Below are positions 26,221 to 48,758 of a DNA stretch of 64,000 bases, piece after piece. The translations under genes were made by a program, and so were the position numbers. The first letter of the stretch is position 1, and each line of letters opens with the position of its first letter. Origin of the DNA: Escherichia phage phi G17; sequence record NC_070870.1; one strand, written 5' to 3'. The notes under the pieces were generated by a model that did not search any database, was not told the DNA's origin, and saw only the letters and a list, made by a program, of their open reading frames with translations.

Positions 26221-26247
26221 ATAAAAAAGTCCCTCCGAAGAGGGACT
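26221..26247 (-). terminator. rho-independent terminator (minus orientation)
   Basis: On minus strand AGTCCCTC-TTCG-GAGGGACT followed by TTTTTTAT. Confidence 0.65.
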
Positions 26248-26407
26248 TAGTAGCTTTTAATAGATAGCTGTATTTGAGCATTATAGTCTGCTCATACTCA
26301 CACTCTTCTGTCGAAGAATATGTTTACAATATCTAGAGTGCCGGACTGTCTTACCGGCATTGTCTTTAGAGTGCTAAGCAATCAGGACTATGTTCTCTAT
26401 TAATGGG

Positions 26408-26481
26408 TGCCCACTACTGGATTTGAACCAGTGACTTTCCGATTATTAGTCGGTTGCTTTCCCCGTCTAAGCTAAGTGGAC
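26408..26481 (-). tRNA. tRNA-like gene, canonical cloverleaf, apparent anticodon AAU
   Basis: Minus-strand read GTCCACT-TA-GCTT-AGACGGGGA-AAGC-A-ACCGA-CTAATAA-TCGGA-AAGTC-ACTGG-TTCAAAT-CCAGT-AGTGGGC-A: 7-bp acceptor (one G-U), 4-bp D stem with GG in D loop, 7-nt anticodon loop with U33, 5-bp T stem with TTCAAAT loop; anticodon stem has one A-A mismatch. Confidence 0.45.
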
Positions 26482-26613
26482 ATAATAGGGTGAGTCATGC
26501 CAGGCTCTAACTGGCTCCTTCTTCGCAATCCTTACATACCCCTACATAATTATTGCGTTAAGCTTTTTTGTTTAAGTTTAAGTGAAGGTGTTCTTGCTGA
26601 CTCATAATACTTT

Positions 26614-26687
26614 CAATTCAGAGTAGCACTCACACAGGATTGTGCCTTTGAATACCGGGAAGTATAAACGAGTGCTACTTTGAATTG
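26614..26687. repeat. long inverted repeat (18-nt arms, 1 mismatch, 38-nt spacer)
   Basis: CAATTCAGAGTAGCACTC at 26614-26631 versus GAGTGCTACTTTGAATTG at 26670-26687. Confidence 0.7.
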
Positions 26688-26857
26688 GTTCCCCGTTTCT
26701 AATACACGGACGGGGACACTCCATGGTCGTTTGATAATCAGGACGACTCACTCCTGACTGAGGTTACGCTGTTAGGCGACCATCAGATACGCTTCTTCGT
26801 TTGCATTTATGTTATTGGTTCGTTTCTAAAAAACCGCATAATCGCTACGAAAACTAT

Positions 26858-26936
26858 CGGGGAGTGCACTAGCTCTGGGCCACGCTCGTGGACATCGACC
26901 TTCCTTCCACAGCTAATCAACTAATACACTCCCCTG
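26858..26936. repeat. inverted repeat (8-9 bp arms GGGGAGTG / CACTCCCC, about 60-nt spacer)
   Basis: CGGGGAGTGCACT at 26858-26870 and ACACTCCCCTG at 26926-26936; shares motif with the 27042-27115 repeat. Confidence 0.6.
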
Positions 26937-27041
26937 TTAGGAAGCTGCCAGGGATTCCACCTGGCTCCATCTGTTTTTAAAGTCACTCAGATATCGTCTG
27001 GACTTCCCATTGCCGTGGGATGTTGATAGAAATGAGAGGTT

Positions 27042-27115
27042 CTATCGGGGAGTACACTTACTCGACTGGTTAAACTATATCTATCCAGCTCCCCAGCAAA
27101 TGTACTCCCCGATAG
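27042..27115. repeat. perfect 15-bp inverted repeat with 44-nt spacer
   Basis: CTATCGGGGAGTACA at 27042-27056 and TGTACTCCCCGATAG at 27101-27115. Confidence 0.75.
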
Positions 27116-27289
27116 TCCATAATAGGAGGGAGGGGACGAATCCTCCCTTTATACCCTATGTTGCATGTAAGATCTAACAATTCGATGCTGTAGATAGCGA
27201 TACTATCCGACATTAAACCCAGCCCCTGGGGGCTTGTGTGATTATAATGCTCAACATTGAGCGGTTAGTTGATAAGGGATCTGAAGCCT

Positions 27290-27317
27290 TATCCCAAAGA
27301 TAATAACCTTTGGGATA
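27290..27317. repeat. perfect 10-bp stem / 8-nt loop hairpin
   Basis: TATCCCAAAG-ATAATAAC-CTTTGGGATA. Confidence 0.6.
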
Positions 27318-27530
27318 TAGCCTAAGATTCAGAAATGGCCCCTATATGGAGAGGCCATTGATTAACCCGAATGTTGCTTTACATTTGCTGTGATAACCAG
27401 TTCTTAAAATAGTCTGTCTGACGGATGGGGAGCCACCCCTAGCGTCAGTGCCATACGGCAAAGATTAAGTTAAGAAAGGTTATGATAGGAGTTCCTATCT
27501 CAAAGGATTCTGACAGAACCCTTCACGATA

Positions 27531-48251: not shown

Positions 48252-48758
48252 TTATTTACTGCTTCTCGCAGCTACTGGTTTGTTTTCCTGGTTATTGTAC
48301 TTGCCTGTGTATGTGGCAGGTTCTTGAACCAGATGAAATAGTACTTGAGCTATCCCGGAACCAGCCGGGATATGTAATTTCTTACGCCCGTGATAGACCA
48401 GTTCAAGGGTAAGATACCCTTTCCATCCTGGTTCTATTACGGTATTGAACACTGATAGTGCACGTCTTGCCCATGTAGACTTATCGTGAACGATAGCTAC
48501 ACAGGACGGGGACATGTTGAACTTCTCAATTGCTGAAGCCAATGCGAATTTACCAAGATGGTGTGATATTTGTTTTCCATCAACGACTTTCACCATTGGA
48601 ATCAACCCAAATAAGCGATAGAAGGTAATGTCCTGCTTTATGCGTATGTCGTAACCAGCTTCACCCAATCCATAGCTTACACCATGCTCGGATACCTTAT
48701 GGTCTGGGACATCCAGCAACTGAGATGAACGATATAGAGAATTACCATTAACAACCAT
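48252..48758 (-). CDS. dcd: dCTP deaminase / dUTPase-fold enzyme
   Basis: 168 aa; GYDIR and IEPGWKGYLTLELVY segments resemble the dCTP deaminase family. Confidence 0.6.
   Translation of the reverse strand: MVVNGNSLYRSSQLLDVPDHKVSEHGVSYGLGEAGYDIRIKQDITFYRLFGLIPMVKVVDGKQISHHLGKFALASAIEKFNMSPSCVAIVHDKSTWARRALSVFNTVIEPGWKGYLTLELVYHGRKKLHIPAGSGIAQVLFHLVQEPATYTGKYNNQENKPVAARSSK

Follow-up and report, generated by a model that had tools for sequence, protein, structure and literature searches.

To our knowledge, anticodons that begin with adenosine are almost never kept by bacteria or phages except in tRNA-Arg(ACG), and the reason for this is an open question in tRNA biology. The bacterial tRNA-Arg(ACG), which is edited to ICG by TadA, is the sole regular tRNA of Escherichia coli with A34. 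In eukaryotes the AAU anticodon is gene-encoded in cytoplasmic tRNA-Ile and its A34 is obligatorily deaminated by ADAT2/3, to give IAU, and tRNAs with unmodified A34 are represented by Mycoplasma tRNA-Thr(AGU) and by engineered E. coli tRNAs with ANN anticodons, in which A34 pairs best with U at the third codon position. The isoleucine codon AUA is read by tRNA-Ile2 (ileX/ileY), whose CAU anticodon is converted by TilS to the lysidine form, and many copies of tRNA-Ile2 are accessory genes in phage genomes. Here a tRNA-Ile gene with the anticodon AAU (74 nt, 26408..26481, minus strand) is described in a stretch of 64,000 nucleotides from Escherichia phage phi G17 (NC_070870.1), which in its whole length is referred to as the window. 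The surrounding region is 90-95% identical to Gamaleyavirus phages, which are G7C/N4-like Schitoviridae of E. coli, Shigella and Klebsiella; the closest is Shigella phage Moonfish. In relatives the gene is already publicly annotated as 'tRNA-Ile-AAT', without comment, and a literature search found no paper that discusses A34 of a phage tRNA-Ile; what is new here is that the gene derives from tRNA-Ile2, that A34 is consistent throughout the clade, that codon usage no longer serves as an argument, and that the cassette context is described.

The element is a real and canonical phage tRNA gene. Rfam model RF00005 matches 26481..26408 (minus strand) with 61.6 bits (gathering score 29 bits; E=6e-11; model positions 1-71 of 71, untruncated), and ARAGORN calls a tRNA-Ile with the anticodon aat at 26404..26482. 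The ARAGORN span is longer by 1 nt at the 5' end and by 4 nt at the 3' end because its acceptor register is slid by one base to include a downstream CCA-like CCCA; in this register the acceptor and D stems are separated by 3 nt, which is non-standard, and the downstream CCA is not kept among relatives. In the standard register CCA is not encoded, and the acceptor stem consists of seven pairs (G1-C72, U2.G71, C3-G70, C4-G69, A5-U68, C6-G67 and U7-A66), followed by the usual landmarks U8, A14, the GG of the D-loop (G18G19), the T-loop TTCAAAT and the discriminator A73. The anticodon A34-A35-U36 (26445..26447), on which the ARAGORN and Rfam registers agree, lies in a 7-nt loop CUAAUAA (26443-26449; C32-U33-A34-A35-U36-A37-A38) with U33 and a purine at 37. 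From the canonical cloverleaf, with its stems of 7/4/5/5 bp, 7-nt loop and T-loop TTCRANY, the gene departs solely by an A27.A43 mismatch atop the anticodon stem, which is the same in all relatives. The cloverleaf is also the minimum-energy structure in RNAfold (-20.6 kcal/mol, z=-1.8 vs shuffles), and both ARAGORN and Rfam find it to be the sole tRNA in the window. An earlier note, made from the sequence alone, had described a cloverleaf with a 7-bp acceptor, GG D-loop, U33 and TTCAAAT and an unusual A34 in an AAU anticodon, all of which is borne out; the score is far from the sub-threshold value that it named as a refutation, and an alternative fold with a conventional anticodon, its other refutation, was looked for and ruled out, since both the shifted ARAGORN register and the RNAfold structure read AAU.

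The closest relatives of the gene by sequence are tRNAs of the Ile2 type. With ileX (CAU) of K-12 it shares 73% identity and with the CAU tRNA-Ile2 copies of phages, prophages and plasmids 74-80%, compared with 67% for metT and 59% for ileV (GAU); the nearest genes resident in E. coli are prophage or plasmid CAT tRNAs annotated by NCBI as tRNA-Ile, and the remoter BLAST matches are CAT-anticodon tRNAs of Yersinia, Aeromonas and Vibrio phages. Because the identity to ileX and other CAU tRNAs exceeds that to ileV or metT, the window tRNA is, judged by sequence, a tRNA-Ile2 derivative in which C34 was replaced by A. Common to both are the CTTAGCT start of the D-arm, the anticodon arm CGACU-NAU-AAUCG, the T-arm and the identities A73, C4-G69, U12-A23 and C29-G41. 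The two differ in that A34 instead of C34 makes lysidine formation impossible, with loss of AUA reading, in that the D-arm is remodelled (U13-A22, loop AGACGGGGA), and in the pair 5:68. As Ikeuchi et al. are cited in PMC12514573, the determinants of E. coli TilS are C4:G69 and C5:G68; both pairs occur in 88 of 120 CAU-type phage tRNAs among the matches listed and in all of the closest CAU relatives in IMG/VR, whereas the window tRNA keeps C-G at 4:69 and has A-U at 5:68 (G.U in some relatives). This change and the remodelling of the D-arm are consistent with release from TilS recognition. Neither the Ile2 descent nor the existing annotation in many relatives had been noticed in the earlier note. 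An origin from a eukaryote or a giant virus, which the eukaryotic use of AAU for isoleucine could bring to mind, is ruled out for an ileX-like tRNA in an N4-like coliphage; the eukaryotic tRNA-Ile(AAU) is similar to it in sequence only through features common to tRNAs in general.

With A34, this tRNA is rare everywhere, and most of the copies found come from Gamaleyaviruses. A pattern of three elements at tRNA spacing (TTAGCT, the loop ACTAATAA and GGTTCRA) gave 12 matches in IMG/VR in its AAU form, compared with at least 120 in its CAT form. Seven of the 12 are Gamaleyavirus and three are real tRNA-Ile(AAU) genes in other phages, of which two (loci L072 2939-3011 and L076 4781-4853) belong to related phage contigs of 30% GC with tRNA arrays (20 and 11 predicted tRNAs, respectively, in the stretches examined, including Ile(GAU) and CAU tRNAs), and the third (L074 10219-10292, minus), an ileX-like gene with one stem mismatch, to a phage contig of 317 kb. 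In both of these lineages the gene is part of a tRNA array that is canonical in other respects. Among 185,579 genomes of bacterial and archaeal species the same AAU pattern has 16 matches, with approximately four credible tRNA-Ile(aat) copies: a canonical one on a 6-kb contig of a Pseudomonadales metagenome-assembled genome (L207 6132-6205, minus) and three cyanobacterial ones with weak acceptor stems. A 2026 preprint states that seven ANN tRNAs of four-fold boxes are absent from phages.

Within Gamaleyavirus the loop CUAAUAA is identical in 15 of 15 readable copies from GenBank and IMG/VR, which come from distinct species and include those of ECBP1, IME11, PhAPEC7, Uz-1, a Klebsiella phage and metagenomic contigs; none of them carries the C34 of a TilS substrate. 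The 10 distinct tRNA sequences vary at nine columns, three in the D-loop and variable loop and six in stems, with zero changes in the anticodon loop, the T-arm and the D-stem. All stem changes keep pairing: 1:72 is G-C or G.U, 2:71 is U-A, C-G or U.G, 5:68 is A-U or G.U, and 29:41 is C-G, with U-A in one metagenomic relative, so that double compensatory changes are found at 2:71 and, from C-G to U-A, at 29:41. With moderate confidence, this pattern suggests that the structure of tRNA-Ile(AAU) has been maintained by selection. The opposite possibility is a recently inactivated tRNA-Ile2, in which a neutral C34-to-A change was fixed in one clade and decay is still to come. One point mutation is all that separates the gene from a CAU tRNA, its clade is young (>90% identity), many relatives have lost or replaced it, drift has affected the D-loop determinants and the TilS pair C5:G68, and the invariant A27.A43 mismatch weakens the anticodon stem, all of which would suit such a history. 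Against it stand the exclusively pair-preserving stem changes with their two double compensations, the absence of indels despite flanks full of them, the compensated pairs 2:71, 5:68 and 13:22 in comparison with the CAU relatives, which leave the fold still perfect, and the independent recurrence of the C34-to-A state in other phage tRNA arrays. We regard such a recent inactivation as very unlikely, and a pseudo-tRNA, which was among the readings offered in the earlier note, is viewed as improbable.

The reading to which we incline, with a confidence that only modestly outweighs our doubts, is that of an accessory tRNA-Ile that reads AUU with an unmodified A34. A lysidine-type tRNA-Ile2 (CAU), an AUA reader often borne by phages, would have undergone a change of C34 to A, after which TilS would be neither needed nor usable. 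The tRNA would be transcribed together with a leader on its 5' side and a structured element on its 3' side, up to the terminator at 26248-26227, then processed by host enzymes that also add CCA, and charged by isoleucyl-tRNA synthetase (IleRS) through A73, C4-G69, U12-A23, C29-G41, A35, U36, A37 (probably N6-threonylcarbamoyladenosine, t6A) and A38. Its unmodified A34 would read AUU by three Watson-Crick pairs, AUC weakly and AUA not at all, the ancestral AUA role being given up, and the tRNA would give accessory help for AUU, the commonest isoleucine codon of the phage, which the host reads only through G.U wobble. The benefit would be either extra capacity for decoding AUU or protection from host nucleases by which tRNA-Ile(GAU) is cut.

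The loop of tRNA-Arg2, which we take to be C-U-N-N-N-A-A, presumably has a frame matching that of the window tRNA, and A34, C32, U33, A37 and A38 are shared with tRNA-Arg(ACG). Positions 35 and 36, which are read by TadA, are C and G in that tRNA and A and U here, and the amino-acid identity is a different one. The decoding properties of AAU were studied in E. coli by Schmitt et al. with a Methanocaldococcus jannaschii tRNA whose anticodon loop, as they state, does not differ from that of tRNA-Arg2 (PMC11066159). Reassignment by the AAU form was 4.5% at AUU, 0.43% at AUC and below detection at AUA, AUU being read approximately 10-fold better than AUC (PMC11066159). Natural tRNAs with unmodified A34, the state proposed here, serve four-fold boxes, where loose reading is harmless, whereas in the AUN box of the window tRNA reading of AUG would place isoleucine at methionine; this misreading was measured as low (0.27% vs 4.5% for AUU; PMC11066159). 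It was also reported that E. coli tolerates ANN tRNAs with native backbones and that overexpressed Ile-tRNA(AAU) is, if anything, beneficial (bioRxiv 10.64898/2026.05.15.725136).

These data bear on the suggestion that A34 is converted to inosine by host TadA or by an unrecognised phage enzyme, in which case a tRNA-Ile(IAU) would read AUU, AUC and AUA without TilS and would keep the ancestral AUA role. The agreement with the TadA substrate tRNA-Arg2 at positions 32, 33, 37 and 38 would fit this suggestion, as would the 8-11% of AUA among phage isoleucine codons, for which an AUA reader would be useful, and the fact that I34 is an IleRS determinant in yeast (PMC9976931). Moreover, a native-backbone Phe-tRNA(AAA) acquired I34 in E. 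coli, according to the 2026 preprint, and TadA is perhaps more flexible than thought (bioRxiv 10.64898/2026.05.15.725136). However, inosine was detected in 3 of 15 A34 tRNAs, and the anticodons named as recognised by TadA are ACG, AUG and AAG, not AAU (PMC11066159); the roughly 10:1 preference of AAU for AUU over AUC, with AUA undetectable, is unlike inosine; and TadA reads anticodon nucleotides, the substrate loop U33-A34-C35-G36 having A35-U36 in place of C35-G36 in the window tRNA. Deamination of A34 is obligatory in eukaryotes; the bacterial enzyme TadA, in contrast, acts specifically on the ACG-type loop. Neither the annotation of Moonfish nor a Pfam search of 20 uncharacterised open reading frames (ORFs) of the window, several small ORFs of which have no Pfam match at all, revealed an enzyme of the adenosine-deaminase type or one of tRNA modification. 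For the proteins so covered, the candidate of a phage-encoded tRNA deaminase was rejected, the only match being a protein of the dUTPase fold without the CDA fold; this is a 168-aa ORF at 48252-48758 (minus strand) that matches Pfam DCD (dCTP deaminase-like, E=1.6e-16) and belongs to nucleotide metabolism. Editing of the window tRNA is not expected, and we regard the inosine route as very unlikely. From the earlier proposal of a phage tRNA-Ile that needs A-to-I editing, the tRNA-Ile is retained and the need for editing is not, given the published AUU-specific reading and the lack of a deaminase among the phage proteins searched.

Several observations weigh against an AUU-reading accessory tRNA; they concern its charging, the depth of its conservation, codon usage and the company that the gene keeps. 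The bacterial IleRS set given by Giegé and Eriani comprises A73, C4-G69, U12-A23, G16, U20, U21, C29-G41, A35, U36, A37 and A38, with G34 or a modified C34 (lysidine) as the wobble determinant (PMC9976931). The window tRNA keeps A73, C4-G69, U12-A23, C29-G41, A35, U36, A37 and A38, and has A in place of the wobble determinant; its D-loop AGACGGGGA, with A16 and G at 20/20a, lacks G16, U20 and U21, which matter for aminoacylation and editing (PMC9976931). As MetRS needs C34 and ValRS needs C36 (PMC9976931), AAU fits the anticodon set of no other synthetase, and charging by IleRS is plausible, though its efficiency may be low. Regarding conservation, the relatives are diverged by only about 5-10%, the tRNA is in pairwise comparison hardly more conserved than the alignable flanks, and it differs from that of PhAPEC7 at 4 of 74 nt. 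As a result of this low divergence the argument for selection rests on the position of the changes and on the lack of indels in an indel-rich region, and it amounts to about six pair-preserving stem events, with p ~0.02 by our own estimate, made without a tool. Furthermore, of the approximately 129 phage records that match the 2.7-kb region, approximately 43 match the AAU tRNA at ≥80% identity and about two thirds are without the gene (the counts are of records, RefSeq/GenBank duplicates included). The tRNA-Ile(AAU) is a dispensable accessory gene.

The support from codon usage is weak. AUU, AUC and AUA make up 58%, 32% and 11% of the isoleucine codons of the phage overall and 65%, 27% and 8% in late genes (AUU 65-70% late), AUU amounting to 30.8 per 1000 codons, and the raw shift of isoleucine towards U, as compared with the other two-fold pyrimidine pairs, has an odds ratio of 2.4-3.5 (p ~1e-11), the same comparison in ribosomal-protein or ordinary genes of E. 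coli giving 0.8-0.9. This bias is mostly an artefact of extreme GATC avoidance. The 64-kb window contains 18 GATC sites (observed/expected 0.09), and isoleucine codons preceded by G are ATT rather than ATC in ratios of 72:1 and 75:1. With GATC-prone contexts removed, the odds ratio falls to 1.5 (p=0.004) for late genes and to 2.0 (p=0.001) for structural genes, the excess vanishes in the polymerase and in early/middle genes, and aspartate is then equally U-rich. The AUU fraction in nine orthologous late genes is also alike in phages with and without the decoding tRNA: 0.712 in the window and 0.696 in Moonfish, which both have Ile(AAU), 0.725 in G7C, which has no tRNA, and 0.711 in Bas96, which has a non-decoding allele of 85 nt. 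The demand for AUU is high throughout the clade, partly through GATC avoidance, and the tRNA left no codon-usage signature. Hence codon co-adaptation was rejected as strong support, and of the codon-usage comparison recommended in the earlier note it can be kept that AUU is the commonest isoleucine codon, with little weight and with no link to the tRNA. The GATC scarcity is an observation in its own right: relatives have 0.3-0.6 sites per kb. The scarcity suggests strong counter-selection of Dam sites or of sites for GATC-targeting restriction, and codon usage is distorted by it.

The position between the leader and the 3' element is a slot whose content varies from phage to phage. Shigella phage pSb-1 (L005 1530-1614) and Escherichia phage Bas96 (L061 1143-1227, minus) carry the 85-nt allele, which has no anticodon loop; its acceptor, D and T arms are intact (Rfam 54 bits), the anticodon arm is an identical, weakly structured insert of ~30 nt, and ARAGORN calls no tRNA, although one record annotates a tRNA-Val. 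In G7C the slot is filled by an unrelated insert of ~140 nt. The neighbouring cassettes of relatives are non-canonical tRNA-like RNAs as well: a 'tRNA-Undet' just 5' of Ile(AAU) (L003 1429-1504, also in L007 and L008; 42.8 bits) has a good cloverleaf, a loop of 6 nt (AAACCA) and a gene-encoded ACCA end, and weak 'tRNA-Cys(ACA)' and 'tRNA-Ala(CGC)' calls further upstream in some relatives (L001 387-458 and 750-828) are poorly formed in their arms and probably do not serve in decoding. In the window no counterparts of these three calls were found. The idea of a set of A34 tRNAs at the locus is unsupported, given the poor arms of the Cys(ACA) and Ala(CGC) calls and the missing counterparts. In Klebsiella phage KP8 the region contains three T-arm-like motifs (L215 300-600), and genes with the annotations Thoeris anti-defence 2-like and anti-CRISPR lie close by in relatives. 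Altogether, this part of the genome looks like a place where cassettes of small structured RNAs are exchanged, a setting that lends some weight to a non-decoding or counter-defence role.

Such a site raises the question whether only the shape of the RNA matters, so that it would not decode and would, for example, divert host defence nucleases or enzymes that bind tRNA (a decoy or sponge) or serve as a signal for RNase P / RNase Z by which neighbouring small RNAs are released. The exchange of Ile(AAU) for the loop-less allele or for the G7C insert, the 6-nt-loop gene just upstream of Ile(AAU) in some relatives, the repeated T-arm-like motifs of KP8, the adjoining anti-defence genes and the failure of gene presence to track codon usage would all be in line with this. 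On the other hand, shape alone would not need an invariant CUAAUAA with U33 and A37 or a compensated 29:41, the eight IleRS determinants are kept across all arms, and the non-canonical cassettes are other genes or alleles, which say nothing direct about Ile(AAU). We consider a shape-only role unlikely. The decoy or tRNA-like element envisaged in the earlier note has the cassette site and the loop-less allele in its favour and is made less likely by the invariant canonical anticodon arm.

For the AUU-reading tRNA, a more specific benefit can be considered, namely that the change of C34 to A produced a nuclease-proof tRNA-Ile, which has no G in its anticodon, would escape nucleases that recognise tRNA-Ile(GAU), e.g., HepS-like HEPN enzymes, and would let AUU translation continue while this host tRNA is being cut. 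HepS, a nuclease of a Salmonella prophage, cuts tRNA-Ile(GAU) as a secondary target, and its proposed preference is for U36 plus G at anticodon position 1 or 2 (34 or 35; PMC13043305). No such G is present in the AAU anticodon, which is suggestive only. Phage tRNAs neutralise tRNA-cutting defences, and loop mutations were proposed to give resistance (PMC10264068, PMC11555353, PMC11464382). The T5 tRNAs that act against PARIS and Retron-Eco7 resemble the window tRNA in being phage tRNAs with a loop unlike that of the host isoacceptor, and the window tRNA lies in a variable accessory region. They differ in that the loop changes of known anti-defence tRNAs surround an unchanged anticodon, whereas here the wobble base itself is changed. 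The case is circumstantial, consisting of the missing G and of the anti-defence genes next to the locus in relatives; no nuclease is known to be linked to Gamaleyaviruses, and the nuclease-proof tRNA is in our view a doubtful proposal, well on the unlikely side. If it were true, a swap of the wobble base rather than loop mutation around a fixed anticodon would be a new route of evasion, and the tRNA-like cassettes with the adjoining structured RNA would form one RNA-based counter-defence island.

Within a clade of E. coli phages that are easy to grow, a tRNA-Ile with A34 has become fixed and its structure is maintained, and at least two further phage lineages have such a tRNA as well. Near-isogenic relatives without the gene, or with a non-decoding allele, make up a natural system, which bears on unmodified A34 in a split codon box, on the acceptance of A34 by IleRS and on whether a wobble change aids decoding or nuclease escape. 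Should the tRNA prove to be no more than a weak helper for AUU, it would be a curiosity with no new principle behind it.

The gene lies at the end of a minus-strand block of replication genes, after those for a single-strand DNA-binding protein and a resolvase; just upstream, on the opposite strand, is an ORF of 3,456 codons, and downstream follow a gene of the Phage_gp49_66 family and then the convergent virion RNA polymerase gene. Directly 5' of the tRNA slot is a leader of ~120 nt (26490..26608, minus), which is 97.5-98.3% identical to three relatives while its surroundings are mosaic, and which is presumed to be a promoter or a 5' leader. On the minus strand, the DNA upstream of the tRNA contains no sigma-70 consensus; the leader was also examined for a promoter motif that recurs elsewhere in the window, with a negative outcome, and a database search with the leader sequence returned no new informative loci. 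The leader contains a hairpin GGAGCCAG-UUAGAGC-CUGGCA (26498-26518, minus), whose motif occurs twice in the window vs 0 expected; the second GGAGCCAG...CTGGCA hairpin, at 26946-26968, resembles that of the leader. A mini-ORF of 15 codons (MSQQEHLHLNLNKKA and stop) at the leader start (26558-26605, minus) probably encodes no conserved peptide, because a 1-nt insertion breaks its frame in some relatives.

Directly 3' of the slot is a structured RNA element of ~66 nt (26334..26399, minus), which was recognised by covariation in RNAalifold; homologs are present at loci L001, L003-L008, L046, L214 and L215. Of its 19 pairs, 8 have compensatory double changes; 98.8% of cells are paired, compared with ~30% in slid registers, and none of 500 shuffles reaches the covariation score (0/500). 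The 5-bp closing helix exists in two fully swapped haplotypes, UAGAG/CUCUA and GCAGU/RCUGC, that are still complementary; the element further contains a hairpin with three covarying pairs and, apart from it, the invariant core AACAUAGUCCUGAUUGCAUAGCACUCUAAAGACAA. Present in 67 phage records, among them those of G7C, St11Ph5, Moo19 and Klebsiella KP8, the element carries no annotation in any of the records listed and matches no Rfam family. It is probably on the transcript of the tRNA and is a candidate new phage small RNA. A strong intrinsic terminator with a 9-bp stem (5 G-C) followed by a T-run was found by a terminator scan at 26227..26248 (minus), ~160 nt downstream of the tRNA, and is likely the end of the tRNA-containing transcript. 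Rho-independent terminators are also annotated in two relatives, in G7C ~175 nt past the 3' element and in PhAPEC7 ~250 nt past the tRNA.

The ~1 kb that precedes the tRNA (26600-27530, minus) has no long ORF and is rich in hairpins, with modules shuffled in comparison with relatives; hairpin arms are located at 26614-26631/26670-26687, 27042-27062/27095-27115 and 27279-27299/27308-27328, and a motif CTATCGGGGAGT is repeated. Upstream Rfam matches to a 'permuted tmRNA' are sub-threshold (27-33 bits vs 47). A Gamaleyavirus-like IMG/VR contig (L027 1264-2018) has, a few kb from the tRNA locus, two group I intron matches with 49.8 and 32.2 bits, the threshold being 50.

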